From an uncultured Bacteroidales bacterium (GTDB lineage: Bacteria; Bacteroidota; Bacteroidia; Bacteroidales; VadinHA17), in assembly GCA_963772705.1 (NCBI GenBank), contig CAVYYH010000011.1, positions 2,384-66,383 on the forward strand: a stretch of DNA of 64,000 bases. Reading direction: 5' to 3'. Positions within the stretch are counted from its first letter, which is position 1. Every line of letters begins with the position of its first letter. The notes under the pieces are model-generated. The model was not told the origin of the DNA. It ran no database searches and was given only the letters and a program-made list of their open reading frames with translations. Below are positions 1 to 38,028 of the stretch, piece after piece. The position numbers and the translations under genes were made by a program.

Positions 1-177
1 GCTCCTGCACACAAGACAGCTTTGTAATGGTTCTTGCACCCGGACACGCGCATCTGCCCGTAATATAAATTCAATATACCTTGACAGTTTTCTGGCCCCG
101 CTCAGGCGGGGTACCTGGACCCTGCCCGGATGCTGCGTCGGGTAATACAACCTCCCAATATTGCCGGGCCGTTAGGT
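1..177 (+). repeat. attC site, 3' portion (5' end cut by window edge)
   Basis: Near-identical to 763-853 plus 1027-1109. GC hairpin ccccgctcaggcgggg at 96-111. Ends with L'-like aatattgccgggccg and core GTTAGGT at 171-177. Confidence 0.7.
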
Positions 178-231: not shown

Positions 232-672
232 ATGAGACATATTGCAATTATTATATGCTTAATATTCTTAATAGCATGCAATACCAGACCAAAACAACCT
301 GATAATTCTCCAATAAAAGCTCCAGAAGTTAGTGCATCAACAGATTCTATTGTACAATTTTTGCTTACCGCAGCTGCCTTAGATTTTTATAACCACCGTC
401 CCCCTGATCCTCTGCGATTCAGGGACGTGAGACTAGGGCACTTAACTGGATCAAATGGAGTAAGGAGGTATTTACTTTGTGGCCAGTTTCTCTCTGTGGA
501 GGAAAAAAACAAAGTTGAATGGATATCCTTCGTGACAATCAAGACAGATCCCTATGAACAATGGCTTGGTAATCAGGCTTATGCATATTGCAATGACACA
601 TCTGTCGTATGGGAGAATGTGAGTGATTTATCTTCTCTACTACAGATTAAATTAGATTCTTTGCGTAGATAG
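232..672 (+). CDS. hypothetical lipoprotein (cassette ORF)
   Basis: 146-aa ORF with a signal peptide and lipobox-like LIAC. Bounded by core GTTAGGT 171-177 and inverse core ACCTAAC 712-718. Confidence 0.6.
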   Translation: MRHIAIIICLIFLIACNTRPKQPDNSPIKAPEVSASTDSIVQFLLTAAALDFYNHRPPDPLRFRDVRLGHLTGSNGVRRYLLCGQFLSVEEKNKVEWISFVTIKTDPYEQWLGNQAYAYCNDTSVVWENVSDLSSLLQIKLDSLRR

Positions 673-711: not shown

Positions 712-1109
712 ACCTAACACGGACGGTATAATTAATAAGCTCGTCACGGTTTTTGCTTTTGCTCCTGCACCCAAGACAGATTTGTAATGGTTCTTGCACC
801 CGGACACGCGCATCTGCCCGCAATTAAATTCTATACCTTGACAGTTTTCTGGCTTCGATCAACTTGTACCGCGACACTGCGCCAGTGCCCGCAACCAACT
901 TTGTAACCGGGGATAAGTTCGCGGCTCCGATCAAACTTGTACCGCGACACTCGTATAACTCACAAAACTTGTACCTGGATGGCAAAAACCGCGCCGTACT
1001 CTCCTCGCACCGTGACAGTTTTCTGGCCCCGCTGGCGCGGGGTACCAGGACTCTGCCCGGTGCTGTCGTCGGGTAACGCCCACTAAATTATACCGCCGGG
1101 CCGTTAGGT
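712..1109 (+). repeat. attC site, family A, about 398 bp (very long)
   Basis: R'' ACCTAAC 712-718 and R' GTTAGGT 1103-1109 are exact complements. L'' cacggacggtataatt faces L' aattataccgccgggccg with unpaired bases. Internal GC hairpin ccccgctggcgcgggg at 1027-1042. Confidence 0.75.
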
Positions 1110-1283
1110 TTAAGGCAGAGTCTTCTAATGACCATGAAAAAGCCCCCTTGAGAAAGAGATTGAATCATTAAATGTGTCAACGAAACTTCCTATGATTGGG
1201 TGGTTAGTAATAATATTTCAAGGTAAGCAAATACCCTATCTTTATAGTAACTTTGATTAGATTAACCTTCCAAAAATAAACTG

Positions 1284-1844
1284 ATGTGGATTGTAATTAT
1301 TTGCCTGGCCTACCTCTTTGGAATATCGGAATCCATACTTGCTTATGCCAGACGTTCAAAGAATAAGACTGTAAAAACCAGACGTGATAAAGGTTCGTTA
1401 ATAGCCCTTTATGTGGTATTCAGTATTAGCATGACGGCCGGTTTTATGCTGGCTGACTTCAGAACACGCACTGTATCTTATTACCTTACAGTATCTTGTG
1501 GACTGATCCTGTATTTACTTGGACTGATAATAAGGTGGACTGCCATTTTACAGCTTAAAAAAGCCTTTACAGTTGATGTTGCAATTAATCAGCAGCATGA
1601 GCTTAAAACCGATGGTATTTACAGTATAATCAGGCACCCGGCATACCTCGGACTTTGGCTTATCTTCATGGGACTGTCGGTTTCGTTGTACAGCATTTTA
1701 TCATTCATTTCAATTACAATTCCTGTTTTTCTAGTGATTTTGTACAGAATTAAAGTTGAGGAAAAGTTGCTGACTGAGGAATTTGGTGTTGAATATCAAA
1801 ATTATGCTAGGAATACGAGGAGACTGATTCCCTTTATATTTTAA
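1284..1844 (+). CDS. ICMT/phospholipid-methyltransferase-family membrane protein
   Basis: 186 aa, multi-TM. RHPAYLG motif followed by an EE..L region, typical of the isoprenylcysteine carboxyl methyltransferase superfamily. Confidence 0.65.
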   Translation: MWIVIICLAYLFGISESILAYARRSKNKTVKTRRDKGSLIALYVVFSISMTAGFMLADFRTRTVSYYLTVSCGLILYLLGLIIRWTAILQLKKAFTVDVAINQQHELKTDGIYSIIRHPAYLGLWLIFMGLSVSLYSILSFISITIPVFLVILYRIKVEEKLLTEEFGVEYQNYARNTRRLIPFIF

Positions 1845-1884
1845 TTCATTTGCATCTGGTAATCCTGATTTGAAACAGCCCTAA

Positions 1885-2143
1885 ACCTAACAGGTCGGTA
1901 TACGCAATTGGCTTCTGCACCGCGAGAACTCTCTGGCTAAAGAGGACCGTTAAGTACTCAGCGGTGCGGCCTGCCCCGGCTCCCGCCGGGGTACGGCGCG
2001 CCACCGTCCCGATGAATCGGGACGCCAACGCCACATTATTCGCCACTCACTACGGTTCGTGGCTCATGAGCTCGTCCCTGACATAGTTTCAGGCTAAAGT
2101 GTAGTTTTTTCGGCAGGATCCTCGGTTCCGCCGAACGTTATGG
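1885..2143 (+). repeat. attC site, family B, about 259 bp
   Basis: R'' ACCTAAC 1885-1891 followed by caggtcggtatacgcaatt. The 3' end is ggatcctcggttccgccgaacGTTATGG (2137-2143). GC hairpins at 1974-1991 and 2006-2023. Confidence 0.7.
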
Positions 2144-2760
2144 TGCATTTAAAAAAGACAGATATGAAAGATAAATTAGTGTTGAAAATTGGACTTATCC
2201 TCATTTGTATAAGTTTTAACTTATTTCAGAATAAAGCATTCTCTCAAGAGAAATACTTAATTGTACTTGATATTCAGAAATTTCCAAAAAAAAGCACACT
2301 ACTGGATAGTTCAGTTATGAAAATGATACAAAATGTAAATTCTTTGATAAGCCATTTCAATGCCGAGAATGTAATATATATTAAAGCAACAGGAAAGGCA
2401 ATAAGTATTACTTCAAAAGGATTTTCAATAGATACTTTGCCTGCCCCTGATTTTGATAGCACACTTAATATTGTGAGTAATAATATTTTTATCAAAATAG
2501 AAGGAGATGCATTTACCTCTGCAGAATTGATAAGTTTTCTGGAGAATAAAAAAGCAAAAGAGATTGTTTTGGTGGGTCTTATGGCAGAAAAATGTATTTA
2601 TAATACAGCTTTGGGTGGAAAAGACAAAGACTATGACATTACGATTGTACCCGAAGGGATTGTTGGTATGACACAAAAAAAGAAAGATAAAGCAATTGAA
2701 AAAATGAAAGTCAAAGGAATTAAATTTTTACCAATGTCAGCAATAATCAGCGCACCATAA
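2140..2760 (+). CDS. isochorismatase-family cysteine hydrolase (secreted)
   Basis: LIVLDIQ and EIVLVGLMAEKCI motifs. The likely true start is ATG 2164 (MKDKLV signal peptide). The stop TAA lies inside the next attC inverse core ccaTAAc. Confidence 0.6.
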   Translation: MVHLKKTDMKDKLVLKIGLILICISFNLFQNKAFSQEKYLIVLDIQKFPKKSTLLDSSVMKMIQNVNSLISHFNAENVIYIKATGKAISITSKGFSIDTLPAPDFDSTLNIVSNNIFIKIEGDAFTSAELISFLENKKAKEIVLVGLMAEKCIYNTALGGKDKDYDITIVPEGIVGMTQKKKDKAIEKMKVKGIKFLPMSAIISAP

Positions 2761-2886
2761 CACATGGTATAGTACATGCGGGTTTCAGAGGTTTTCGAAG
2801 GTTTATAGTACGTAAAAAAGGTAAGTGTAAACTGATAGGAAATCGCTTCGTAATCCCGCACGACACCATACCATCAGCCGTTAGGT
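2755..2886 (+). repeat. attC site, canonical length (132 bp)
   Basis: R'' CCATAAC 2755-2761 and R' GTTAGGT 2880-2886. Inner inverted repeat acatggtatagtacatgcggg / cccgcacgacaccataccat with mismatches and bulges. Confidence 0.75.
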
Positions 2887-2920
2887 GCAAGGCAATGCTA
2901 AACCCCAAGCAACTGATAAA

Positions 2921-3373
2921 ATGAGATCTGCCACAATAACTTGTTTCATTATTCTATTGATTAACTTGAACCTGAAAGGTCAAACCAAGATCATTACAGG
3001 CAGAGTAATAGATGAAGATTTTGAAACCATACCATTAACTATGATTCAAAACTCTGATTCAATTCTTATCGGACAGACAGATCTGGACGGTTACTTTAAT
3101 ATTGAAATCCCATTAGAAACTGATACTCTATTTTTCAGGTTTATTGCAATGGAATGGAAAACAATCACACTAACTCCTGATTGCGATACTATTGACGTAA
3201 TCCTTATGCATGACGCTATTTATGATTTTATGACAGCTACTAAGATTGATAGACTCCGTATGAAAAGATTCAAACAGTTGCCTGAGTTGCATCAAAAAGC
3301 CTATGAAAAAGGACTGTTTACCACTGTGCAACCTTGTTATGAGCAAGATTTTGTTCCAATAAAAAAAGATTAA
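2921..3373 (+). CDS. carboxypeptidase-regulatory-like (CarboxypepD_reg) domain protein
   Basis: Signal peptide, then GRVIDEDFETIP...DLDGYFNIEIP. The ORF-track start 2885 is a GTG inside the attC core, so ATG 2921 is preferred. Confidence 0.5.
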   Translation: MRSATITCFIILLINLNLKGQTKIITGRVIDEDFETIPLTMIQNSDSILIGQTDLDGYFNIEIPLETDTLFFRFIAMEWKTITLTPDCDTIDVILMHDAIYDFMTATKIDRLRMKRFKQLPELHQKAYEKGLFTTVQPCYEQDFVPIKKD

Positions 3374-3411
3374 ATGCCTTTAAGCAACAGAGAGAAAATG
3401 AATTGCCCAGC

Positions 3412-3678
3412 ACCTAACAGGTCGGTATATGCAATTAACTCCCCCTTCTTAGCATGGCTGGTTGAGCTCAACCTCAGAAGATGCAAAGAATATTTAACCC
3501 AATAGTGGCTGAGGCCTCGGTTGGCTTTCCGTAATGCGAGAATAATGTATTAACCGCATAACCCTGCATCGCATCACGAGTGCGAAAACACCCCGACCTC
3601 TTCGCGTTCGGCACGGGGCACGGCGCGCCACTGTCCGCCAGATGGCGGACCAACTGCACATATTGTCGAACGCTATTT
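3412..3678 (+). repeat. attC site, family B, about 267 bp, degenerate 3' core
   Basis: R'' ACCTAAC 3412-3418 plus caggtcggtatatgcaatt. Shares the module ggcacggcgcgccac + hairpin (3633-3650) with the 1885 element. The 3' end tcgaacGCTATTT is a degenerate core. Confidence 0.6.
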
Positions 3679-3685
3679 GCAATGC

Positions 3686-4590
3686 ATGACAAATACACAT
3701 ATTTACAAGCTCATTTATATGGACAATTACTTGACAGTCTTTAGAAATGAATCGGGAAAACAATTAGTCTTTGAGGCTTATGATTCAGTCATTAACTCAA
3801 TAGGAATTCAATTTGAAGAAATCTATCTGCCCACAAGACTAGGGGAAACTCATATATTAGTCTCGGGTGATAGAAAAAATCCTCCATTGCTACTGGTACA
3901 TGCCTATTATGCATCAGCTGCGTCTTGGTATAAAAACCTGAAGTCGTTATCTGAAAGATTCCGTGTTTATAATGTTGATATAATTGGTGACCCAAATAAA
4001 AGCAAACCGATAAAATTAATACGGCAACTAGATGACTTCCTCGACTGGTTTGAAGATATAATGCAAGGGTTGAACCTTGAAAATGCTGATTTCATTGGCA
4101 ATTCTGTTGGAGCCTTTCATATCACAAATTTTGCAATACATTCGCCAAATCGTGTAAAAAAGATGGTATTGATAGGTCCAGCTGCAACATTTAGACAAAT
4201 TATGCCATTTTATATTAAATACATTTCCTGGTGGAATTACCGGTTGGTCTTTTTTAGTTAATCATGCAATTAAATGGGTAGAAAATGGAGTTGAATTTGA
4301 TCATGAATTCAGAAAGCTATTCTTTTTACTGTTAAAATATGGGAAAGCTACAAATCAAGTATTTCCTGCGGTATTTACAGATCATCGATTTAAAAAAAAT
4401 TAAAACTGCCCACACTACTTATTTATGGAGATAAAGAAAATATCTACAATTATAATTTGGCAATAATCAGAGCAAAAGAGCATATTGAAAACTTAAGAGT
4501 AAGGATTATTAAAGAATGGTAATCATATTACTGCAGCGACAAACTGACGAAATGATAAATAAAGAACTATTGGATTTTCTTAAGGATTAA
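3686..4590 (+). pseudogene. alpha/beta hydrolase, multiple frameshifts
   Basis: The N-terminal 194-aa ORF (HAYYASAASW, GNSVGAF nucleophile-elbow-like) continues in other frames (NHAIKWVENG..., KLPTLLIYGDKENIY..., EMINKELLDFLKD). The breaks fall at T6 and A8 homopolymers. Confidence 0.6.
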
Positions 4591-4601
4591 AATGGCAAAG
4601 C

Positions 4602-4921
4602 ACATAACACGGACAGTATAATTAATGGGTTTGTCATGCTTTTTGCGGGGATTTCTGCCCTTAACTGGGGAAAGGTACTCAACACGCACCTCGATCGCCC
4701 CACTGCCCTTTAAACAGTTTCAGCGATCTGACTATTTCGCTATACCTATCAAATCTGTATCGCGAAACACGTAAATTTCTCACAGTTTTGTACCATGATT
4801 CAAAAAAGCACGCAATACCTTTCTCACATCACCATGACAGGCCGCTCGGTATCGCACCATGACAAAACACATTGGAGCTCGTCGGGGAACGCCCAATAAT
4901 TATATCGCCGGGCCGTTATGT
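4602..4921 (+). repeat. attC site, family A, about 320 bp
   Basis: R'' ACATAAC 4602-4608 and R' GTTATGT 4915-4921 are exact complements. L'' cacggacagtataatt faces L' aattatatcgccgggccg. The centre is homologous to 856-1011. Confidence 0.75.
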
Positions 4922-5133
4922 TTAAGCCTTAAAACCACTGATTACGAGCCAATTTCGTCTTGACAACCTAGGCCTAAGCATAACTCCTAGAAAAGTAGAT
5001 TATCTTTGATTAACTTAACAATTGTGTAAATAGTTATAAACATTGGCCATAGCATCAATATAAATTACTTCCATGTACACAGAGTATTATAATTCTAGCC
5101 TTTGCGTATTTATATTGATTCTTTGAGTTCTAT

Positions 5134-5622
5134 ATGAATGCGAGAATAAAAAAGAAGAGTAGCATTGTTAAATCCAGTGACAAAGGAAGCATTCGCTTTC
5201 TCTTTACATTAATTCAGATTGGCTGCTTGCTTTCATTCGGTATTGGCGCAACAAAAGTAGGTATGATTAATGATTGGAATATCTTATTTATCATTGGAGC
5301 AGTACTGATAATATTTGGAATTATAATAAGATTAAACTCAATCATGACACTTAGGCGACAATATACCTATACTGTAACAAGGATTGAGAATCATGCGCTA
5401 ATTGAATCAGGATTATATAAGACTATTAGGCATCCTGGATATCTGGGACTTGTAATTATTTTTCTCGGGATTTCAACTGCATTATCAAATTGGTTGTCAA
5501 TCATCTTGATGATCATTCCGGTCATCATTGGAATTATGAATCGAATACGAGTTGAAGAAAGTTTTCTAATCGAACAAATGGGTCAAAAATATACTGATTA
5601 TCAAAGCGGACAAAGAAGTTAA
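5134..5622 (+). CDS. ICMT/phospholipid-methyltransferase-family membrane protein
   Basis: 162 aa, multi-TM, with RHPGYLG and RVEESFL motifs. Paralogue of 1284-1844. Confidence 0.65.
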   Translation: MNARIKKKSSIVKSSDKGSIRFLFTLIQIGCLLSFGIGATKVGMINDWNILFIIGAVLIIFGIIIRLNSIMTLRRQYTYTVTRIENHALIESGLYKTIRHPGYLGLVIIFLGISTALSNWLSIILMIIPVIIGIMNRIRVEESFLIEQMGQKYTDYQSGQRS

Positions 5623-6056: not shown

Positions 6057-6196
6057 AAAGGAATTCTTTCATTAAAATTTCAGAAAACTCAACCACCGGG
6101 CTGTGATGGGCAGATTTAATCGTGCAAACTCCGAAAGGCAACCATGTCACTCGACAACCAGGAGTATCTGGAGTAATTATATTTTATAAAACCAGC

Positions 6197-6442
6197 CCAT
6201 AACACGGACAATATTGGTAAGTTGTCAATCCTACGCCAAAGCAATGGAGGGCAAAGACGGCAAAAAGTGCGCCCCCGTCTAACCCTGCTCATCGGGGCAC
6301 AGCATACCCTCCTTCGTACTCCGAAGCTTTAGCGAAGTAGTACTTTGCACCGTGCTCCGCCAGCTGCCAGCTAAAGTACCGGGATTAGTGCACGATTTGG
6401 CGTCAGGTAACACCTACTATTTTTATTGCCGGGCCGTTAGCG
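6197..6442 (+). repeat. attC site, family C 5' end with A-like 3' end, about 246 bp
   Basis: R'' CCATAAC 6197-6203 plus cacggacaatattggtaagttg. The 3' end is ttttattgccgggccGTTAGCG (6436-6442). GC hairpin ccccgtctaaccctgctcatcgggg. Confidence 0.65.
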
Positions 6443-6515
6443 TTCATGCTAAGACTCCCTACAAATATCAGGATACACCAAGAACCTCTGAATAATTCTT
6501 TAAAAGAACTGTTTT

Positions 6516-7297: not shown

Positions 7298-7379
7298 TGC
7301 TGACAGGTGAGTATTTGCAATTGTCTTCTGTGCCGCGAAAATTTAGAAGCAACCATGCACATACCGGCGAAAATTAGCC
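7298..7379 (+). repeat. degenerate attC (family B-like, about 82 bp)
   Basis: tgctgacaggtgagtatttgcaattg resembles acctaacaggtcggtatacgcaattg. The 3' side gcacataccggcgaaaATTAGCC has a mutated core. Confidence 0.4.
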
Positions 7380-7894: not shown

Positions 7895-8801
7895 ATGATT
7901 AAAAAAGTACCCTATAATATCCATTTTGATCTTTTCACTCGTATTATCAGGGTGTGGTTCAAAAGACATTTACAAAAACAAAACTGAGTCACAGAAAATT
8001 GACTCATTAATAAAAGTTCAGGAAATTAATGACAGGACAGTTCTTGTAAAATTTGGTTATGATGCGATAACTGCAATAAAAACCACAAAAGGGATTGTTC
8101 TAATTGATGCGGGAATATCGACATCATTAACAGCACGGTACAAGAATATTATTGAAAACAAATTCGATAACAATAATTTCGTTTATGTAATCAATTCTCA
8201 TGGACACCATGACCATATAAGAGGTAATAGTCTCTTCCCGAAAGCACAGGTCATTGGACATGAAAATTGCCGGAAGGATGGATTTGTGAATCAAAATCCA
8301 GATAGTTTGTCGGTTAGAGTGGGCAAAATTGCAGACGATTATGAGCTTCAGCTTCAGCAATCAATTCCTAATACTGCAGAATGGGATGATATTTTTACTC
8401 AGAAAATCAGGTACAAGGGGGCATATTACGACATAAAAAACCAATATCCCTTTCAGATATCCTGATATCATATTCCCGATAGTATGAAGCTTGAGTGTGG
8501 CGACACTTCTTTTGAAATGATCTATTTTGGCAAATTTCATTCTGCCAGTGATATATTAATCTATGTACCCGAAATGAAAGTACTCTTTACCGGAGATTTA
8601 TTTTCAAAGTATGGCAGGCCAAGCTTTGGCAACTCATCTGACACAGATAATAACAGATGGCTGCATGCAAATAAGTGGATAAATAAAAGGATAAATAATA
8701 TTGAAACAATAATTGATGGTCATGGCCAGATCTTAACAACCGATGACCTTAGAATGTTTAATGAAAATCTTTTATTAAAGTACTCAAAGGAATCTGAATG
8801 A
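7895..8801 (+). pseudogene. MBL-fold metallo-hydrolase lipoprotein, frame-disrupted
   Basis: HGHHDH motif. ATG 7895 (MIKKVPYNI) is out of frame with the lipobox LVLSGC. There is an in-frame TGA at 8463-8465, while an alternative frame reads RYPDIIFP, matching the paralogue at 22046-22928. The sequence resumes as MKLECGDTSFEMIYFGKFHSASD. Confidence 0.65.
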
Positions 8802-8990: not shown

Positions 8991-9926
8991 ATGAAATCAA
9001 CAATCTTACTAATTGTATTTCTGACTGCCTTTTACATATGCGCACTTTCTCAGCCTGTTGCACCAAACCAGGGAAACAGAGCCGATAGTTTAATGAGCGA
9101 GGGCAACATTCCTGAAGCAATTGCCGAATATGAAAGATTATATAGCCAGAATCCTAAAGATGCCCGGATAGTATACAATTACGCCTGTGCACTGTCGATT
9201 GATAACACTGTTATTAAGAAATTTGACACTTGTTTTAAGTACCTCAATCTGGCGGTTGAACTCGATACTTCAGTCAATGCCCTTTTGGAACCTGACCTGT
9301 TACCGGCACGCGAAGACAAAAACTGGAGTGTTTTTGAGAATAGGCTTATATCAATGTTAAATGAAAAATACAATAACCCATACAAGGATATTGATTATGC
9401 AAAAGCACTATGGAAACTTGGTGCCCTGGACCAGGCTTATTTTGACGAAATTGGTATTGCATTCAGAAAATTAGGAATGAGATCTTCGGTTGCGTCAGCA
9501 ATCTGGAAATTGAAGTTTATGATACAGGAAAATAACCAGAAGGAACTTGAAAAGCTCGTCTCAGAAAAAGGATGGCCAAAAATAAGTGATGTTGGCCAGC
9601 CTGCAGTTATGGCAGCTTATCTTGTTGCAATGCATACCAATGACGGGAGTCAGAAAAAATACCTGCCAATGATATGGAAGAGTTGCGAGGAGAAGGAACT
9701 TCCATGGCAGAGATATGCAAATATTTATGACAGGTGCCTTTTTAATGAGAATAAGCCTCAGAAATACGGTACACATACTAGATTTAACGAGCAGACCAAA
9801 TCGGAAGAACTCTATCCACTCGAAGATGAATCAAAAGTTGATGAATGGAGAAAGGAACTTGGTCTGGAACCCCTGGCAGATTATCTTGCTCGCTTTAATA
9901 TAAAATATCCACCACAACATAATTAG
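8991..9926 (+). CDS. hypothetical secreted protein
   Basis: 311-aa ORF with a signal peptide and a TPR-like N-terminal segment (AIAEYERLYSQNPKDARIVYNYACAL). Confidence 0.5.
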   Translation: MKSTILLIVFLTAFYICALSQPVAPNQGNRADSLMSEGNIPEAIAEYERLYSQNPKDARIVYNYACALSIDNTVIKKFDTCFKYLNLAVELDTSVNALLEPDLLPAREDKNWSVFENRLISMLNEKYNNPYKDIDYAKALWKLGALDQAYFDEIGIAFRKLGMRSSVASAIWKLKFMIQENNQKELEKLVSEKGWPKISDVGQPAVMAAYLVAMHTNDGSQKKYLPMIWKSCEEKELPWQRYANIYDRCLFNENKPQKYGTHTRFNEQTKSEELYPLEDESKVDEWRKELGLEPLADYLARFNIKYPPQHN

Positions 9927-9967
9927 ACTGATAGCATGTCACATAAAATTGAATTTGAATTATTTGT

Positions 9968-9993
9968 GCTAACACTGACAAAATGGGTAATTG
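9968..9993 (+). repeat. attC 5'-half remnant (family C) fused to the start of the next ORF
   Basis: tgctaacactgacaaaatgggtaattg compares with tgctaacactgacaatatgggtaagttg at 14061. The ATG of ORF 9983 lies inside it. Confidence 0.45.
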
Positions 9994-11719
9994 GATATCG
10001 TTGACACTTATTCTGACATTGTTACAGGGTTGTGCCCGGCAACAATCTTACTATGATTTTAAAACCTCATTCGAAAAGGATTTTAAGGATGAGCTGCATA
10101 AAAACGATGTAAGTAACGCCGCCTATGCAGTGTTTACCGATGATAGTGTCATTTTTCAGGATGCTTTTAGCAATAATGGCACGAAGGTCGATGGCAATTC
10201 GCCTTTTTTAATAGGGTCCGTTACAAAGGTTTTTACAGCAGTTGCAGTGATGCAACTCTACGAACAAGGAAAAATCGACATCGACAAGCCGGTTTCGGAC
10301 TATGTGCCAGACTTTGCAATCAATCAACGTTTCCCCGACTCAGAACCTATTACCATTCGGGCGGTCTTAACACATCATGCAGGCATTCCCTCTGACTACT
10401 ACCTGCACAAATTCAGCAAAAAACAGCACGATTTCAATGAGATATTGCCTTACCTCAATTCGCAATACACCTGTTATCCTGTTGGCGAAATATGGGCATA
10501 CTCCAATCTGGGATATGCCCTGCTGGGCATACTGATTGAGCGTGCAGGCGGACTGAAATACGAAGATTACGTTGTCCGGAACATATTTACCCCATTGGGA
10601 ATGAAGAATTCCGGTTTTTATTCCGATTACGAAAAACAAAAACATTTAGCTATAGCATACTGTTCTGGTAAGAAGACATTCGAATATCCATTGCTGGATA
10701 AGCCAGCCGGGGCCATCTATTCAACAGTCAATGATATGGTTCTTTTTTGCAGGGCATTTATCGACAAAAAAGAACGTCTCTTAAAAAATGCCACACTTGA
10801 AGATATGTACGTGATTCAAAACCGCGATAATCTTCTGGATATGGACCATCGGATGGCTATTTGCTTTAACTATAAAAATAAGGCTTATGAACTGGGCCGG
10901 GTATTAGAACACGGAGGGGCTACCATGTACCATCGGGCACAAATGGTTATTGCACCCGATGCCGGGCTTGCTGCCATAATGCTCTCCGACTCACCCACCG
11001 GAAAAGACAACGCATGGAAACTTGACGAACAGCTGATGGTTGAATACTGCAAGACAACACAACTTGTGATTGATAAGGCTTTGAATCCCGAGAAAATAAC
11101 CCCGCTCACCCCTATCAGCAGTAAAAACCTGGCGCAATACGCAGGTAATTACGCCATGCCCGGTATGGTGTGCAAGTTCGAATGGAAAAACGGGTATCTG
11201 TCACCTACCATCAACGGGCAGAATTTTTACCTGGCGCCACATGATTCCAATTCATTTGTCCCTGCCAAACGCTTTCTGGGCATGATGCTCAAATCGAAGA
11301 AAATGTATTTCCTTCTTGAAGAAATAAATGGTGAGAAACATTTTATCCAGGCGATGCCATGGGGAGGCTTAAACATAATCGGTACCCAATTCAATCCGGA
11401 ACCAATTCCTCAGATATATCAAAACCGGACCGGAAATTACACCATAATGAATACAGATGATGAAGATGTACCATCGCTCGAAAAGGTCAGGATTTGTATA
11501 GAAGATGGGGTTCTGTTATTGAAATATTGTTTTAACCCTGAAATGTCGTTTGGTCAGGATGCAAGTCTTGCATTAGATATTTCTAATGATTCTGTTTCGT
11601 TTGTAATGGGCTATGGGCGCGGCGGAGGCGAGAGCGTGGTCTTTGATAAAAATGGTGACACTTTCCGGTATATGGGACTTAAGCTTAAAAGAACTGTGGA
11701 TTCGTCCATAAAAGAGTAA
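9983..11719 (+). CDS. serine hydrolase (beta-lactamase/transpeptidase-like fold) lipoprotein
   Basis: SxxK motif GSVTKVFTA, YSNLGY, lipobox LLQGC. 578 aa. Confidence 0.75.
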   Translation: MGNWISLTLILTLLQGCARQQSYYDFKTSFEKDFKDELHKNDVSNAAYAVFTDDSVIFQDAFSNNGTKVDGNSPFLIGSVTKVFTAVAVMQLYEQGKIDIDKPVSDYVPDFAINQRFPDSEPITIRAVLTHHAGIPSDYYLHKFSKKQHDFNEILPYLNSQYTCYPVGEIWAYSNLGYALLGILIERAGGLKYEDYVVRNIFTPLGMKNSGFYSDYEKQKHLAIAYCSGKKTFEYPLLDKPAGAIYSTVNDMVLFCRAFIDKKERLLKNATLEDMYVIQNRDNLLDMDHRMAICFNYKNKAYELGRVLEHGGATMYHRAQMVIAPDAGLAAIMLSDSPTGKDNAWKLDEQLMVEYCKTTQLVIDKALNPEKITPLTPISSKNLAQYAGNYAMPGMVCKFEWKNGYLSPTINGQNFYLAPHDSNSFVPAKRFLGMMLKSKKMYFLLEEINGEKHFIQAMPWGGLNIIGTQFNPEPIPQIYQNRTGNYTIMNTDDEDVPSLEKVRICIEDGVLLLKYCFNPEMSFGQDASLALDISNDSVSFVMGYGRGGGESVVFDKNGDTFRYMGLKLKRTVDSSIKE

Positions 11720-12905: not shown

Positions 12906-13033
12906 GCATAACATGACGGTATATGCAATTAACTCCCCCTCCGGTGGCGGGGTTCGTTGAGCTCGTCCATGACAGAGTTACAGGTTAGAGAGTAGATTTT
13001 TCGGCAGGATCCTCGGTTCCGCTGAACGTATGC
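12906..13033 (+). repeat. attC site, family B mosaic (128 bp)
   Basis: GCATAAC 12906-12912. The 5' part matches 3420-3450 (ggtatatgcaattaactccccct). The 3' part matches 2065-2143 (gagctcgtcc.tgaca.agtt.cagg...ttttcggcaggatcctcggttccgc.gaacgt). Confidence 0.7.
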
Positions 13034-14060: not shown

Positions 14061-14241
14061 TGCTAACACTGACAATATGGGTAAGTTGTCTCCCACATTG
14101 CGGGACAGGTTGTCTCACTTTTTGCCCCGCCTTAGGGCGGGATCAGGTTCGTCTCCGCCAATGTCTGGCTCCTCCCGATTCTGTCATTAAGTGTCAGAAC
14201 TAAATGCAGGGCCCCCCTCCTATACTGCCGGTCCTTTATGC
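14061..14241 (+). repeat. attC site, family C, about 181 bp
   Basis: TGCTAAC plus cactgacaatatgggtaagttg ... cctatactgccggtccTTTATGC. GC hairpin cccgccttagggcggg. Confidence 0.6.
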
Positions 14242-15332: not shown

Positions 15333-15552
15333 GCATAACACGGACAATATGGGCAAGTTGCTTCCCCCTTCGACGGACAAAATGTCACTATTTTTGAATG
15401 AATATGAGCCTCTTGCCATGGCGCGTCAGAAGCCCACGCACCCGTACATACACCATTTCCGCCAGCCGTGTATTTCTTCACAATAATGTTAAGTCTTAAC
15501 CACGGCAGTTGTTACTACGGAACATTAAACCTCATCCCTGCGAACGTTATTG
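15333..15552 (+). repeat. attC site, family C, about 220 bp
   Basis: GCATAAC starts 1 nt after the rsgA stop and is followed by cacggacaatatgggcaagttg. The 3' end is ccctgcgaacGTTATTG at 15546-15552. Confidence 0.65.
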
Positions 15553-16126: not shown

Positions 16127-16543
16127 ATGACTGACTCAAAACAAGAGGTTTCAAGGGTATTGGATGCACATTGGTCTGCCTTAAAAGCCAAAGACGCTGA
16201 TGCTGTTATTGCTTTACTGTCTGAAGATTTTCTGTCATGTGGAAGTGACCCAAAAGAATTCTGGAACAAGGCAGAAATGTATAATACTGTTAAACAGATG
16301 TTAGCCAACACTGAACTTATAATAGATATCACTGTCGACAAACGGGAAATACGCATTTCAAAAGATGGTAATTCAGCAATCGCCTTTGAACAGATGTTTC
16401 TGACACCTTTCAGCCAGAAGATACCAGTCCGAACAGTTTATCATTTCGTAAAAGAGGATGATTCCTGGTTAATCGATTTTACAAGTACTGGTTTTATTCC
16501 GAACAATGATGATATAGAAAAACTAAATAGGGCATTAGATTAA
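16127..16543 (+). CDS. SnoaL-like/NTF2-fold (DUF4440-like) protein
   Basis: 138 aa. The HWSALKAKDADAVIALLSEDF start and the size are typical of this fold. Confidence 0.55.
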   Translation: MTDSKQEVSRVLDAHWSALKAKDADAVIALLSEDFLSCGSDPKEFWNKAEMYNTVKQMLANTELIIDITVDKREIRISKDGNSAIAFEQMFLTPFSQKIPVRTVYHFVKEDDSWLIDFTSTGFIPNNDDIEKLNRALD

Positions 16544-18719: not shown

Positions 18720-19017
18720 ATGAAGCTGACAACTCTGCTCTTAATGACATTTACCGGAATGCTTCTTATCACTAGCCCCATCCTCTCTGGTCAGAGCGGA
18801 ATGTCAGAGCCCTGGGAAAAAGAGACCAAAACTTGTGATCCTTGATCCTCGTGACGAAGAGATAGACAGGGAATTTGGGATTGACAGATCGAAACCTGGC
18901 ATAAAACCCCAAACCATTTATTATCTTTATCTTGAGAACGGTCCTGACAGTTTGAATGCCAGTGCTATAATGCAGAATTTTGATCTGATATATGAACAGT
19001 TGCGCCCGAAGGAGTGA
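18720..19017 (+). pseudogene. small secreted protein, possible frameshift
   Basis: The signal-peptide ORF (MKLTTLLLMTFTGMLLITSP) terminates early. A 60-aa ORF continues in another frame. Confidence 0.3.
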
Positions 19018-19505
19018 TAAACAAAAAGGCAATGGAAGTATTTGGCAAACCGGCAATAAACCCTCTCCTGTTCTACTCCGGTAAAATAGCAGGATACATC
19101 GTCTGGATGATTTTAATATTATCCTTGATGAACAAAAACATCCTGCCTGAAACGATTCATTTGAATTTGGATGTCATTGGATATATATTACTCGTTCCTG
19201 GAGTGCTGTTATCTGTTCTAAGCCTCTTCACCCTGGGCAGATCAACCCGGTTTGGCATACCCACAAAAAAAACCATCCTTAAAACCGGAGGACTTTATAG
19301 GATCAGCAGAAACCCGATTTACCTGGGATTTAACCTTATTACCGTCTCTTCTGTACTTATTCTGTTAAATCCGGTAATCCTGATCCTGGGGGTGTTCAGT
19401 ATGGCAGTTTATCATCTGATAATAAAAGCGGAAGAGCGATTTCTTGAAAAAGCTTTTGGATCCGATTATCTTGAATATAAGAAGAGAGTCAGACGTTATG
19501 TTTAA
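19014..19505 (+). CDS. ICMT/phospholipid-methyltransferase-family membrane protein
   Basis: 163 aa, multi-TM, with RNPIYLG and AEERFLE motifs. The GTG start overlaps the previous stop. Confidence 0.6.
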   Translation: MINKKAMEVFGKPAINPLLFYSGKIAGYIVWMILILSLMNKNILPETIHLNLDVIGYILLVPGVLLSVLSLFTLGRSTRFGIPTKKTILKTGGLYRISRNPIYLGFNLITVSSVLILLNPVILILGVFSMAVYHLIIKAEERFLEKAFGSDYLEYKKRVRRYV

Positions 19506-19564
19506 AATATCTGCCGGGTCAATAAAAATAACAATACAAATTACTGACAATAAATATATTGCAA

Positions 19565-20260
19565 ATGAATTCCGTGAATAGACAGGCTGAAGTTACCGCA
19601 ACGGTTATGAAAGACATCGTGAGAATTATAATAAGAATAGCCCTGCTGGCTATTATCCTTCTTCTGATTACCAGGCAGTTTAAAAGGGCTGATGAGAAGG
19701 TAGTTCTATCTCCGGTCAGATCTTTTTATTCTGCAGGAAGTGCTCCTGATACAGCAAGAACAGCCATTATTCTTCAGCTAAAAAAGTTCCAGGACGGATA
19801 TTCCAGACGCGATCCGAATGAAATAGATGCCTTTATGCAGTCGCTCTATTCAACGGAAAACATACTGATTCTCGGCACAATGCCAAATGAAGTTTACATT
19901 GGCTATGAGGCTGCATCCCAGTTGGTTAAATCAGACTGGGAATCATGGGGAGACTGCAGGTTTGACATTGACAGTGCAAATATCTCTGTATCAGGCAATA
20001 CTGCCTGGTTTTCGACAAGGGGATTAGTTGAGTTTGACCTTTCCGGTATGCTGGTCATCCCTCTAAGACTGACGGGGGTAATGGTAAAAGAGGATCAGGT
20101 ATGGAAATTCCAGCAACAGCAATTTCAGTTTGATATCGACTTTTCTTTCAGTCTGCTCGCAGTCCTGGTACTTTCAGCCTGGATTGTGATTAGTTTATGC
20201 ATTCTTGCGATCAGGATCATTAAAAAGTTAAGAAACAAACAATTAAACCAGCATAATTAA
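19565..20260 (+). CDS. membrane-anchored NTF2/SnoaL-like domain protein
   Basis: N- and C-terminal TM helices flank a domain of about 130 aa (DPNEIDAFM...NTAWFSTRG...). Weak call. Confidence 0.4.
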   Translation: MNSVNRQAEVTATVMKDIVRIIIRIALLAIILLLITRQFKRADEKVVLSPVRSFYSAGSAPDTARTAIILQLKKFQDGYSRRDPNEIDAFMQSLYSTENILILGTMPNEVYIGYEAASQLVKSDWESWGDCRFDIDSANISVSGNTAWFSTRGLVEFDLSGMLVIPLRLTGVMVKEDQVWKFQQQQFQFDIDFSFSLLAVLVLSAWIVISLCILAIRIIKKLRNKQLNQHN

Positions 20261-22045: not shown

Positions 22046-22928
22046 ATGATTATAAAAGGATCACAGGTCAGCATAATATTCTGTGTCTGGTTGTACCTTT
22101 TATCAGGCGTTCTGCAAAGCAAATTTGATAACATTGACTTAAAGAGTTGCCCAGTTAATCGGAGTACAAAGAATTAAGAGCCGCTCCTATAGTGAATTTT
22201 GGATATGATGCTATTACAACAATTGATACCGACCAGGGTATTGTTGTCATTGACGCAGGAATTTCCACTGTACTAACGTCCAGATACAGGAAACGAATTG
22301 AAAATGTGCTTCAAAAGGATCATTTTATTTATGTGATCAACACTCACGGACACCAAGACCAGGGCTGAGGGAATCTTCTTCACACACCCAGGTTAGTCGG
22401 ACACGAAACTGTTCCGTTGATTTAAGTGAAAGATGACTAAACGTTCTGATCGATGGCGAGCTTAAGCAATATTATCCGGGATTATGAGCGAAAAATCTGG
22501 ATCGCTCCTAACAGTGACAATGTTATGACATTATACCAGAAAACAAATATATAGTTTAATCAGATCTGAATAGCAATGTACTGAGAGTTCCGGATATTAT
22601 ATTCTCTGATAGTCTGACCCTTCCCACCTGAGATACTACATTTGAAATGTTCTACTTTGGCAAATCCCACTCAAATAGTGATATAATAATCTTTATACCT
22701 GAACTTAAACTGATCTTTACCGGAGATTTGTTTTCAAAGTTTGGCATGCCGGGTATTAATGCAACAACAATAGATGAAGCAAGATCCAGACAAGCTATCT
22801 TATGGATAAAAGAAAGGATGGATAAAATTGAAATAATTGGGGAGCACGTTCAGATTTTGTCGCCAGATGATCTTAAACAATTTTATAACAATATTTTGAG
22901 TAGCTTTTCAGCGGAGAATATTAACTAA
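22046..22928 (+). pseudogene. MBL-fold hydrolase paralogue of 7895-8801, heavily decayed
   Basis: VNFGYDAITTIDTDQGIVVIDAGIS parallels the first copy. The metal motif is mutated (HGHQDQG followed by a stop). Several stops and frameshifts occur before the intact C-terminal ORF 22647-22928. Confidence 0.7.
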
Positions 22929-24764: not shown

Positions 24765-24812
24765 TTTACTTTGTAATTCAAAGTATTCTTATTTACTTTG
24801 TAATTCAAAGTA
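24765..24812 (+). repeat. two direct copies of a 21-nt motif, 27-bp period
   Basis: tttactttgtaattcaaagta occurs at 24765-24785 and 24792-24812, about 115 bp upstream of ORF 24926. Confidence 0.8.
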
Positions 24813-24925
24813 CTTTAACTCCCATGAATAATTGAATCCATGTCTACAAACCATTCGGAAACAAAAAAATCAGGGCAGTAATTAATTTTTATGAACAAGT
24901 AAACTTAATAAGAGGAGAAACAGTC

Positions 24926-25216: not shown

Positions 25217-25328
25217 CCCATCACTCCGTTCTGCCTCCGGTACCAAAAACCATTAGGGCTGCTGTTTCGGTTTGCAGCCCGGATGAATAACAATACATCC
25301 AGAAAAAGTGTTTTTATACAGAAAAATA

Positions 25329-25378
25329 TATATCGCTTGCGATATAACAAAAGTTTTGTACTTTTGTGTCGCAGGCGA
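25329..25378 (+). promoter_or_regulatory. candidate promoter with two operator palindromes upstream of gpx
   Basis: Perfect 8+8 palindrome tatatcgc-tt-gcgatata at 25329-25346. TActTTTG at 25359-25366 matches the Bacteroidetes -7 box TAnnTTTG. A second half-palindrome tcgc-ag-gcga lies at 25369-25378. Confidence 0.5.
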
Positions 25379-25407
25379 TATTGTCTGTAACGATAAATTA
25401 AAAATGT

Positions 25408-36861: not shown

Positions 36862-38028
36862 ATGATGATTAACAGACAATTTATCAGGGCAGCGGCTGCA
36901 CTCATTCTTATGCTGCCGGCCCTGAACTGTCAGAACACGTTTGCTCAGATGAAAAGAGCCAGGGATTACGGAATAGAGATCGGCATACTGCGTACCGGCA
37001 GTAACAATGCCATAACAGATGTGCCCGGAGTAAAGGTGGGCCATGTCACTTTAATTGAGGGCGAATCGGTAAGGACAGGTGTCACGGCTATACTGCCTCA
37101 TGACGGAAACATATTCCAGCAGAAGGTACCGGCCGGTATCTTCGTTGGCAACGGATTCGGCAAGCTGACCGGGTACACGCAGGTTGAAGAGCTGGGAAAC
37201 CTTGAGACCCCGGTGGTGCTGACCAACACGCTAAGTGTACCGGTAGCCGCCGCAGCTGTCATTGAGTATACGCTCAGCCGGCCCGGCAACGAGGGAGTGA
37301 CAAGCGTCAACGCCGTGGTTGGAGAGACCAACGATGCCAGGATCAATGACGTCAGGGGAAGGAATATCACAACGGAGCATGTCCTGGAGGCAATCAGCAA
37401 TGCAGCGGGTGGTCCTGTTGCCGAGGGCAGCGTTGGTGCCGGCACCGGAACCGTCTGTTTCGGGTTCAAGGGAGGGATAGGCACATCATCGCGAGTACTG
37501 CCTGCCACCAGGGGTGGTTATACCGTGGGTGTGCTGGTACAGACGAACTACGGGGGGATACTGCATGTCAACGGTGTACCCGTCGGTCAGGAACTGGGTC
37601 GTTACAGCTTCAGGACCACCGCCAGTGAGTACAGGGAAGACGGATCGTGCATGATTGTGGTCATGACCGATGCGCCTCTCACCTCGAGGAACCTCAAGAG
37701 GCTGGGTTCCAGGGCTTTTGCCGGCATGATGCGAACAGGGTCATCCGGATCAAACAGCAGCGGAGATTATGTCATTGCAGTATCGACAGCAGAGGAGCTG
37801 CGTATCCCCTACTCTTCCGACTCAATGTACGAGCAGTGGCGCGAGATCAGGAATGACGAGATGGACCTGTTATTCCAGGCAGCAGCGGAGGCAACAGAGG
37901 AGGCTATAATAAACTCCCTCTTTGCAGCTGAGACAACCAAGGCCAGGAACGGGATGACAGTTGAGGCCCTGCCTGTTGAAAAGACGCTGGAGATACTTCG
38001 TAAATACAATAGGCTGAACGAAAAATGA
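36862..38028 (+). CDS. P1/S58 DmpA-type aminopeptidase
   Basis: GVKVGH, TGVTAILP, VGETND and GTGTVCFGFKGGIGTSSR motifs. Confidence 0.8.
   Translation: MMINRQFIRAAAALILMLPALNCQNTFAQMKRARDYGIEIGILRTGSNNAITDVPGVKVGHVTLIEGESVRTGVTAILPHDGNIFQQKVPAGIFVGNGFGKLTGYTQVEELGNLETPVVLTNTLSVPVAAAAVIEYTLSRPGNEGVTSVNAVVGETNDARINDVRGRNITTEHVLEAISNAAGGPVAEGSVGAGTGTVCFGFKGGIGTSSRVLPATRGGYTVGVLVQTNYGGILHVNGVPVGQELGRYSFRTTASEYREDGSCMIVVMTDAPLTSRNLKRLGSRAFAGMMRTGSSGSNSSGDYVIAVSTAEELRIPYSSDSMYEQWREIRNDEMDLLFQAAAEATEEAIINSLFAAETTKARNGMTVEALPVEKTLEILRKYNRLNEK

Follow-up and report, generated by a model that had tools for sequence, protein, structure and literature searches.

Conserved GC-rich hairpins as probable branches of unusually long attC sites in a Bacteroidales gene-cassette array

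[quoted passage not shown] In the window, by which we mean the whole 64,000-nt stretch of DNA analysed here, positions 1 to about 16100 form an integron-type gene-cassette array, in which at least 12 attC sites within 16 kb, all on the plus strand, separate unrelated single ORFs of one orientation, as judged by a Pfam scan of the window ORFs. Each attC element is bounded by YTAAC (R'') at its start and GTTA (R') at its end, and each cassette starts with the reverse complement of its own R''. The sites that concern us, several of which belong to two families (F1 and F2), and one complete cassette are as follows.

1-177, plus strand: attC site A1, family F2, cut by the left window edge; R' GTTAGGT at 171-177
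713-1109, plus strand: attC site A2, family F2, about 397 nt, with internal duplications; R'' TAAC at 715-718, R' GTTAGGT at 1103-1109
1104-2137, plus strand: complete gene cassette, a PEMT/ICMT-like ORF (1284-1844) plus attC
1886-2143, plus strand: attC site A3, family F1, a 144-nt deletion derivative with a 3' extension module; R'' TAAC at 1888-1891, R' GTTATGG at 2137-2143
3413-3678, plus strand: attC site A5, a mosaic with an A13-like 5' part and a 3' part of family F1 from GCGAGAAT on; degenerate R' GCTATTT at 3672-3678
4604-4925, plus strand: attC site A6, family F2, with a degenerate centre
6196-6443, plus strand: attC site A7, family F2, containing the non-significant hairpin proposed at 6270-6296
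7300-7375, plus strand: attC site A8, a mini F1-type site of about 80 nt; arms kept, centre almost wholly deleted
12908-13030, plus strand: attC site A13, about 120 nt; 5' arm in common with A5 (94%), 3' module with A3 (89%)
14062-14240, plus strand: attC site A14, with hairpin CCCGCC-TTAG-GGCGGG at 14126-14141
15334-15550, plus strand: attC site A15, with an F2-like 5' arm

The initial annotation had read these elements as long attC sites, and the analysis supports that reading. The PEMT cassette recurs in another genome, in another array context with other neighbours (loci L061, L062 and L063; contig ERZ25039459:contig_52295). Its homology starts at CGTTAGGTTT, ends at CGTTAT and breaks exactly at the R' boxes, as expected of a cassette that moves as a unit with the crossover in R' (G|TT). 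A scan for the tyrosine-recombinase box-II motif found no intI in the window or in any fetched locus, and a Pfam scan of approximately 30 window ORFs, which all lie in the 1-41 kb part, turned up no recombinase. In L061 the array adjoins an ordinary gene at its left end, with no intI, and exact protein look-ups for window positions 232-672 and 36862-38028 returned no match and hence no extension toward intI. A complete integron, with intI, attI and Pc beside the array, is thus not present in the captured DNA; an intI may lie upstream of the window, because the left window edge falls inside the array.

The hairpins, helices and flanking motifs of interest lie within these sites.

96-111: GC hairpin CCCCGC-TCAG-GCGGGG, an optional apical insertion in the F2 3' module, where other copies have GGC-TAAA-G
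1027-1042: GC hairpin CCCCGC-TGGC-GCGGGG, homologous to 96-111
1915-1969: long-range helix P1 (arms 1915-1923 and 1961-1969), with the strongest covariation of the F1 helices
1974-1991: hpA, CCCCGGC-TCCC-GCCGGGG, its 3' arm now at the A3 deletion junction
1993-2004: ACGGCGCGCCAC, ending in CACC, which in full-length copies forms the 3' arm of LR1', a long-range helix
2006-2023: hp2 allele X, GTCCCGA-TGAA-TCGGGAC, in A3
2025-2029: CCAAC, 3' arm of the main attC stem extension, pairing with ATTGG at 1907-1911
3591-3618: hpC, CCCCGA...TCGG-CAC-GGGG, in A5
3620-3631: ACGGCGCGCCAC, 3' arm of LR1'
3633-3650: hp2 allele Y, GTCCGCC-AGAT-GGCGGAC, in A5

Six of the hairpins proposed in the initial annotation (at 96-111, 1027-1042, 1974-1991, 2005-2024, 3633-3650 and 14126-14141) were confirmed. 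Their stems are perfect over 6-7 bp with at least 80% GC, their loops measure 4-6 nt, and folded as ssDNA they reach -8.0 to -10.3 kcal/mol, with z-scores of -2.7 to -5.2 relative to dinucleotide shuffles. A further hairpin proposed at 6270-6296 proved weak, with a 5-7 bp stem, a loop of at least 16 nt and a z-score of -0.44. The common flanks reported for the two hp2 hairpins are indeed there, ACGGCGCGCCAC upstream (1993-2004 and 3620-3631) and CCAAC downstream; both acggcgcgccac and CCAAC serve as arms of long-range helices, which makes hp2 a hairpin that branches off at a junction. The hairpins at 96-111, 1027-1042 and 1974-1991 had also been grouped as one set, which is right for the first two, whereas the third belongs to the other attC family and is not positionally homologous; the 'tac' said to follow all three does follow the third, but through a C-to-T change at the deletion junction. 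Comparable GC hairpins number 6 in 2,460 nt of attC sequence versus 4 in the other 61,540 nt of the window, so that within the window they are not the generic palindromes that had been offered as an alternative, and hairpin density is approximately 60-fold higher in the inter-cassette elements than in the remaining window.

Family F1, which holds the segments 1974-2023 and 3633-3650, was collected by metagenome and genome scans and nhmmer, yielding 120 hits that include 51 distinct full-length copies of 234-353 nt. Ten of 28 metagenome loci (GC-rich contigs) and three of 17 genome loci (Myxococcales, Anaerolineae, Actinomycetes) were excluded as chance matches because nhmmer found no element in them, and the genuine genome loci are all Bacteroidales or Rikenellaceae MAGs. 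A scan of viral contigs with ACGGCGCGCCACNGTCC gave 15 loci, all of them chance matches without hairpin context, and the F1 element has no match in plasmid or phage collections. The centre between the arms, or variable terminal structure (VTS), measures 163-267 nt in F1, while F2 sites span 189-551 nt; with overall lengths of about 250-400 nt these sites are unusually long and fall outside the range described for attC, a range that is descriptive and sets no mechanistic requirement.

The sites carry the ends expected of attC. YTAAC and GTTA are nearly invariant in the 44 aligned F1 copies (columns 8-11/379-382, 94.9% paired) and match the inverse core RYYYAAC and core GTTRRRY, although R' positions 5-7 are often not RRY; examples from the window are CCTAAC...GTTAGGT and GTTATGG. 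The arms pair as an R-box, an unpaired central spacer (A12 opposite GAAC) and an L-box stem (13-24/363-373, 96.6% paired), extended to ATTGG/CCAAC. Bottom-strand folds leave one base of the R''-L'' arm unpaired, at column 15 (T on the top strand, A on the bottom), a position that fits the canonical extrahelical bases, whereas identity and number differ from the canonical G and T (PMC2727003). Inside the arms lie the P1 domain, hpA, the long-range helix LR1', the P2 domain, optional hpB and hpC, and hp2, all of which fold on either strand. These modules are dispensable, with hp2 absent from 27, hpB from 34 and hpC from 18 of the 44 copies, and stems are less diverse than loops (0.145 vs 0.341 in hpA, 0.019 vs 0.256 in hpC, and 0.019 vs 0.197 in P2).

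In the window, A3 has lost 144 nt of its centre between 8-nt direct repeats, CGGGGCAC, and with them the GGTG partner of LR1'. Whole-element folds of A3, A5 and A13 did not recover a clean R/L stem; these are deletion or mosaic derivatives, in which the stem is visible only through the family alignment. Short ORFs inside the centres (for example 1846-2046 and 3474-3698, both on the minus strand) were dismissed as coding because family indels are not multiples of three.

The R/L stem is continuous only on the bottom strand, by virtue of three invariant G·T wobbles; on the top strand the pairs 22/365 and 28/359 become A·C in 43 of 44 copies, and 12/378 is also A·C. The consensus fold reaches -28.1 on the bottom strand (50 pairs, full R/L stem) versus -19.05 on the top, and the median probability of the R/L stem is 0.42 versus 0.013, the bottom strand being higher in 42 of 44 copies. 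Computationally, therefore, the bottom strand is predicted to form the recombinogenic fold, and of the levels at which structure had been suggested to act, folded ssDNA is the best supported. In the inner helices, the numbers of wobble pairs do not consistently favour either strand. Minimum free energy was set aside as evidence of strand asymmetry: the bottom strand is more stable in all 44 copies (-5.0 kcal/mol), but this is a weak measure because composition alone accounts for -3.4. The VTS is more stable than its shuffles on both strands (mean z of about -2.25), with the same paired fraction (0.56-0.58 vs 0.55-0.59). We also asked whether the recombinogenic stem is made more probable at equilibrium by the hairpins. 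Shuffling the VTS gave a median of 0.48 against the native 0.42, and the native value was higher in only 25 of 44 copies; since shuffling does not lower stem probability, a thermodynamic 'helper' role is not demonstrated.

The initial annotation held that homologous copies keep their hairpin potential while the sequence changes, and the larger sample bears this out. In the F1 structure 94.7% of cells are paired, compared with 36-47% when partners are slid, and double-change cells number 61 versus 23.8 in shuffles, a value reached by none of 500 shuffles. Six of nine P1 pairs covary across arms approximately 40 nt apart, and stem pair 32/355 is GC in 25 copies and CG in 10. The 20 distinct hp2 sequences show two-sided switches at three stem positions (CG/GC, GC/CG and AU/CG), and 93.6% of their cells pair, where shuffles give 73.7% and slid partners 31-50%. 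Real as it is, the covariation goes back to very few events. The hp2 alleles form discrete haplotypes (X, Y and Z) with no intermediates, their three inner pairs switching together; within allele X, the loops TGAA and TTCA are precisely each other's reverse complement, a sign of spacer inversion. The same palindromes also turn up elsewhere, CCCGATAGCTATCGGG in hp2 and inside P1 of another copy (L022), and CCGCC-nnnn-GGCGG in hp2, in the hpC loop and in F2. Relative to its L061 orthologue, whose ORF differs at 4 of 561 sites, A3 hpA carries a paired insertion that recreates the family majority allele. Selection on structure, as originally suggested, is thus not the only reading, because whole palindrome alleles are exchanged and the same palindromes occupy different positions. 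With a few discrete alleles replacing one another or dropping out altogether, much of the 'covariation' may be due to gene conversion and template switching.

Taken together, the GC hairpins are probably conserved branches of giant attC centres, an extreme variant of the known VTS. Upon unwinding of the site, the GC-rich Watson-Crick hairpins would form locally on both strands, contributing an estimated 7 kcal/mol or so per strand of stability over composition-matched random sequence; a site of such length would then be less costly to expose or extrude, and its centre would stay self-folded. No single hairpin would be essential, modules being gained, lost and swapped among the many paralogous attC copies. 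The VTS is known to range from 3 nt to complex branched structures (PMC2727003), and how long it is determines both its extrusion from dsDNA and the recombination seen in replicating cells (PMC8946536, PMC5371416). Counting against this explanation, when a triplet took the place of the 65-bp VTS of VCR, bottom-strand recombination in a conjugative assay shifted only 1.6- to 2.4-fold (PMC2727003). The frequent absence of hp2 and the near loss of the centre in A8 likewise count against it, as do the lack of an intI in the captured DNA, the stem probability that shuffling does not lower, the paired fraction equal to that of shuffles and the non-canonical extrahelical A.

The most serious alternative, which we consider distinctly less likely yet worth keeping in view, is that the hairpins arise as by-products of mutation, none of them being selected for a role of its own: intrastrand template switching, to which frequently folding DNA is prone, would homogenise quasipalindrome arms, invert loops and spawn palindromes, while gene conversion and slippage would spread and delete units across the dozens of near-identical attC copies, leaving covariation as a handful of block events. 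The co-switching hp2 haplotypes, the inverted allele-X loop, the palindromes recurring at other positions, the paired hpA insertion, the 144-nt loss between direct repeats and the optional modules all fit this account, and there is published evidence that template switching both generates hairpins and preserves them (PMC8794818, PMC8604942, PMC7202029). Unpaired linkers such as GGCACGGCGCGCCACC (diversity 0.047) and the long-range P1 helix are conserved as well, however, and local arm-to-arm copying accounts for them poorly, given the spacing of the P1 arms and their six covarying pairs; VTS stability also exceeds the expectation from composition in most copies. Mutational origin is compatible with the VTS interpretation, and the two are not exclusive.

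It appears improbable, in turn, that the branched centre is a lineage-specific functional device of Bacteroidales arrays, serving multi-hairpin cruciform extrusion of a 300-bp site or docking of a host or recombinase accessory factor, and thereby tuning cassette excision, possibly with a distant or non-canonical recombinase. An extrudable 300-bp site would matter because bottom strands appear on the leading-strand template. The initial annotation had likewise suggested that the centres do more than act as a spacer, and this found no support: with no Rfam match, no T-run tails and optional modules, a function beyond DNA folding is unsupported.

A role in RNA, in which attC read-through in cassette mRNA would yield top-strand hairpins acting as a structured 3' UTR that stabilises the message or attenuates read-through, or as an ncRNA, is more doubtful still. 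The inner helices consist of Watson-Crick pairs and form just as readily on the top strand, where RNAalifold proposes a helix GGTGT/GCGCC in which nearly all variant cells still pair (G·U or U·A); six copies have a canonical hpB (CCCCGA-nnnn-TCGGGG) followed directly by GTTTTTG, and bottom-strand hpC precedes TGTTTTTG; both arrangements resemble terminators. Against this, the helix with the best support, the R/L stem, is peculiar to the bottom strand and therefore antisense to cassette mRNA, the wobbles of the inner helices favour neither strand, and the architecture, with its optional modules and tolerated deletions, is not kept. Rfam returned no match at the gathering threshold or at E<=1. 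The originally described hairpins lack a T-run tail (their tails are TAC..., GCCAAC and CAAC), a T5 run abutting only hpB and hpC in some family members; terminator-like sites number 15 versus 12.6 expected, with none of those hairpins among them, and promoter-like sites are not enriched (61 vs 54). The originally described hairpins thus lack the features of an intrinsic terminator, and the elements those of a structured ncRNA (a curated family, or transcription signals together with a fixed architecture); there is no indication of a separate RNA gene.

A reading of the hairpins as small REP- or MITE-like palindromes, mobile in their own right and colonising attC centres, is scarcely credible: units do recur at several positions with polymorphic presence and GTAC adjoins several hairpins, but they are confined to attC (none of the 4 comparable hairpins in the 61.5 kb outside has the same sequence), show no target-site duplications or terminal repeats, are accompanied by no RAYT or IS200/IS605 gene among the scanned window ORFs, lack, within the window, the intergenic dispersal and GTAG head of REP elements, and, for family F1, have no match in the plasmid or phage collections.

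Among known systems, REP/BIME elements and intrinsic terminators share with these hairpins a short, GC-rich, intergenic stem-loop form, whereas the present hairpins are not dispersed outside attC and have no GTAG head, no RAYT and, for those originally described, no U-tract. The window and L061 arrays, with no intI in the captured DNA, resemble the IntegronFinder category CALIN, attC clusters without an integron integrase. They differ in that the array is large and known from fragments, beyond which an intI may lie, and in that the exchange of cassettes between genomes implies that a recombinase was active recently. The default attC size ceiling of the standard detector is approximately 200 nt, so arrays of 250-550 nt sites could be missed. 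In Bacteroidetes proper only one complete integron has been reported, in Salinibacter ruber (PMC9024848), which is consistent with under-detection of long-attC arrays.

Quasipalindromes and inverted repeats that act as template-switch hotspots offer a second parallel, with perfect arms, variable or inverted loops, two-arm block changes and inverted-repeat expansion (PMC8794818, PMC8604942). Here, by contrast, the palindromes lie within a site that needs ssDNA folding, and because attC function requires such folding, selection and mutation bias are confounded. The F1 centre is a clear example of how not only selection but also template switching and gene conversion can produce 'covariation' in DNA hairpins.

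The closest relatives are VCR and other attC families of sedentary chromosomal integrons. These too are lineage-specific, conserved in sequence and located at the 3' end of cassettes, with R''/L''...L'/R' inverted repeats, bottom-strand folding and a branched VTS (PMC2727003, PMC5371416). The sites described here differ in size (234-353 nt in F1 and up to about 550 nt in F2, versus a published 57-141 bp with a VTS of 20-100 nt; PMC5371416, PMC4889954), in a centre that is itself highly conserved and modular, in their Bacteroidales host, in an extrahelical base that is A on the bottom strand, and in that no adjacent intI was seen. A conserved, modular, branched centre of more than 200 nt provides a natural experiment on how VTS size and structure bear on folding pathways and cassette stability.

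The GC hairpins picked out in the initial annotation are real and statistically supported, and are best explained as belonging to an extreme, modular form of the attC variable terminal structure (VTS, the attC centre between the stem arms) in Bacteroidales cassette arrays. From position 1 to about 16100 the window carries unrelated open reading frames (ORFs), mostly single and on the + strand throughout, separated by GC-richer elements that each start with YTAAC and end with GTTA. At its start, every cassette carries the reverse complement of the R'' found at its own 3' end, as is characteristic of integron cassettes.

Genes of the array and matched cassette ends
1 to ~16100, +: PEMT/ICMT-like, isochorismatase, α/β-hydrolase, FGE-sulfatase, serine β-lactamase-like, SIMPL and RsgA-like genes
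171 GTTAGGTTT and 711 AAACCTAAC: cassette start and own R'', reverse-complement match
1103 GTTAGGTTTAAGGC and 1878 GCCCTAAACCTAAC: cassette start and own R'', reverse-complement match

Direct evidence of cassette mobility comes from the PEMT/ICMT-like cassette (window 1104-2137), which recurs, with an identical protein and different neighbours, in ENA contig ERZ25039459:contig_52295 (locus L061, at 9830-11000) and in two JGI contigs (L062 and L063). Its breakpoints are located exactly in R' boxes, the similarity between window and L061 starting precisely at CGTTAGGTTT and stopping at CGTTAT. An integrase gene was found neither in the window nor in any of the retrieved loci, and intI is absent at the start of the L061 array, which adjoins an ordinary gene there; this left boundary (L061 2228-2547) is a 320-nt AT-rich spacer following an alginate-export-family gene, with neither an integrase gene nor a recognisable attC.

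The α/β-hydrolase cassette (window 3677-4590) appears broken: its ORF ends at 4261, the Pfam profile is matched over the first half only, an apparent remnant of ~330 nt lies between this stop and the next attC, and the preceding attC has a degenerate R' box, GCTATTT. The R' box GTTATGG (2137-2143) overlaps the first isochorismatase ATG (2140), and translation may really begin at the ATG at 2164. Membrane methyltransferases of the PEMT/ICMT family are encoded by three separate genes (1284-1844, 5134-5622 and 19014-19505), and within or just past the array lie a serine β-lactamase-like gene (9983-11719), a metallo-β-lactamase-fold gene (7926-8465) and two SnoaL-like genes (16127-16543 and 19559-20260). 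A 119-nt direct repeat of 80% identity (8502-8620 and 22632-22750) joins the starts of ORFs 8484-8801, in the array, and 22647-22928, past its recognisable end, which are probably small paralogues. The two pairs of repeated AT-rich palindromes (24770-24815 and 25325-25385; TTTACTTTGTAATTCAAAGTA twice, ATATCGC..GCGATAT twice), upstream of ORFs 24926 and 25408, the latter a glutathione peroxidase, look like operator sites.

Two attC families were delimited: F1 holds the hairpins at 1974-2023 and 3633-3650, and F2, which is bounded by TAACACGGAC and GCCGGGCCGTTA, is 189-551 nt long and is found in the same arrays, holds those at 96-111 and 1027-1042. A metagenome scan with the pattern GGGGYACGGCGCGCCAC-N(14-30)-CCAAC, leaving the F1 hairpin hp2 unconstrained, gave 28 loci, of which 18, in AT-rich contigs, are true homologues. 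In a genome scan, 14 of 17 loci carry the element, all in MAGs labelled Bacteroidales or Rikenellaceae. An nhmmer profile gave 120 matches, among them 51 distinct full-length F1 copies of 234-353 nt. The F1 element had no match in plasmid or phage collections.

Elements of F1 in order along the top strand (the coding strand of the cassettes), from an alignment of 44 copies and 393 columns
R''-L'' arm: YTAACAGGTCGGTATATG, 5' arm of the main stem
Stem extension, 5' side: ATTGG, partner of CCAAC
P1 long-range helix: CCGCACCGC...GCGGTGCGG, columns 38-46/101-109, both sides changing in 6/9 pairs
hpA: CCCCGGC-TCCC-GCCGGGG, 41/44 copies with a stem of 6 bp or more
Linker after hpA: includes GGTG, 5' arm of helix LR1'
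hpB: optional, in 10/44 copies
P2 helix: GGTTTTTGC...GCAAAAAC, nearly invariant
hpC: optional, in 26/44 copies
Conserved block: CACGGCGCGCCACC, whose CACC end pairs with GGTG to give LR1'
hp2: between the CACGGCGCGCCACC block and CCAAC, forming a hairpin in 17/44 copies
Stem extension, 3' side: CCAAC, pair 32/355 covarying (GC:25, CG:10)
L'-R' arm: GCCACATACCGCCGAAC-GTTA, 3' arm of the main stem

Six of the seven named hairpins are perfect GC stems (-8 to -10.3 kcal/mol, z = -2.7 to -5.2); the one at 6270-6296 falls short of significance. In attC there are 6 perfect GC-rich hairpins over 2,460 nt, in the rest of the window 4 over 61,540 nt, so they are not generic palindromes. The claim that hairpin potential outlasts sequence change also holds: a hand-drawn F1 structure has 94.7% paired cells, vs 36-47% with slid partners, and 61 double-side changes vs 23.8 in shuffles (0/500 as high). 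Conservation is higher in stems than in loops. The reported flanks, CACGGCGCGCCACC and CCAAC, are indeed conserved, and are themselves arms of long-range helices, so that hp2 branches off as a hairpin where several helices meet.

The 18-nt hp2, seen in 28 distinct genomic contexts, has two haplotypes, X (GTCCCGA-nnnn-TCGGGAC) and Y (GTCCGCC-nnnn-GGCGGAC), between which three stem pairs switch on both sides, always jointly; its stems are mostly perfect and its loops hypervariable. A longer allele, Z, reads GCGACCCGATAGCTATCGGGTCTGC, and 27/44 aligned copies have GCGACTCTGCG in place of hp2, leaving only a mini-hairpin of 4-5 bp. The hpA stem has at least five variants, one being CCCCTGACGG-TA-CCGTCAGGGG. 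On allele X, comparing locus L035 (690) with window 2006-2023 and locus L053, the loops TGAA and TTCA are exact reverse complements on identical stems, which looks like hairpin or spacer inversion.

The bottom strand is the one predicted to fold into the complete R/L stem. At three invariant main-stem positions (12/378, 22/365 and 28/359), A·C on the top strand corresponds to G·T on the bottom. For the bottom strand RNAalifold gives a consensus of -28.1, comprising 50 pairs and the full R/L stem, vs -19.05 and 30 pairs for the top, and the median ensemble pairing probability of R-box plus L-box is 0.42 vs 0.013 (bottom higher in 42/44). The inner F1 helices are strand-neutral, wobble counts favouring neither strand consistently, and the VTS is ~7 kcal/mol more stable than shuffles (mean z about -2.25), equally on both strands. 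Cumulative GC skew climbs almost steadily across 1-64000 and long ORFs are nearly all on the + strand, which is therefore probably the leading strand; this would place attC bottom strands on the leading-strand template, as has been reported of sedentary integrons of large size (PMC5371416).

As to how variation arises, attC A3 (1886-2143) has a full-length orthologue in L061, the ORFs differing at 4/561 nt. A deletion between two direct repeats, CGGGGCAC, has removed 144 nt from A3 (junction 1986-1993; L061 about 10705-10850), and its hpA differs by a paired insertion that restores the family's majority allele. Divergence of ~7% in the attC vs 0.7% in the ORF indicates that the attC evolves, or is converted, far faster than the gene. 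Elsewhere, A5 (3413-3678) is mosaic, its 5' part resembling A13 (12908-13030) and its 3' part being F1, A8 (from 7300) is an 80-nt mini-F1, and the palindromes CCCGAT..ATCGGG and CCGCC..GGCGG reappear at differing positions. The deletion, the hpA insertion, the A5 and A8 forms, the moved palindromes and the inverted loops bear the imprint of slippage, of gene conversion and of template switching between the arms of inverted repeats, the last being a documented source of hairpins that also maintains them (PMC8794818, PMC8604942). The hairpins may be selected structures or by-products of mutation. An octamer, GGCTAAAG (1935-1942, 2092-2099 and many loci), lies in loops of several non-homologous F1 and F2 modules, with 77 occurrences per ~301 kb of integron loci vs ~9 expected by chance; its TAAA is replaced by a GC hairpin in F2.

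A thermodynamic helper role is unsupported, as the recombinogenic stem had no lower an equilibrium probability once the VTS was shuffled (0.48 shuffled vs 0.42 native). The proposed attenuator found no support, the hairpins having no T-run tails and terminator-like sites numbering 15 vs 12.6 expected; nor did the structured ncRNA, with no Rfam match, whether at the gathering threshold or relaxed to E<=1, and with optional modules. A REP reading is very unlikely, attC sites being the only places where the hairpins lie.

In published work an attC VTS may be a complex branched structure, and swapping the 65-bp VCR VTS for a triplet altered recombination only 1.6- to 2.4-fold with the site supplied as ssDNA (PMC2727003). 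In replicating cells a long VTS cuts recombination by up to 4 logs, and VTS melting is needed for extrusion from dsDNA (PMC8946536, PMC5371416). From these reports and the VTS results we infer that hairpins folding on both strands would mainly reduce the unwinding or extrusion cost of so long a site. Published attC sites total 57-141 bp with a VTS of 20-100 nt (PMC5371416, PMC4889954), whereas those of the families described here are 2-3 times longer.
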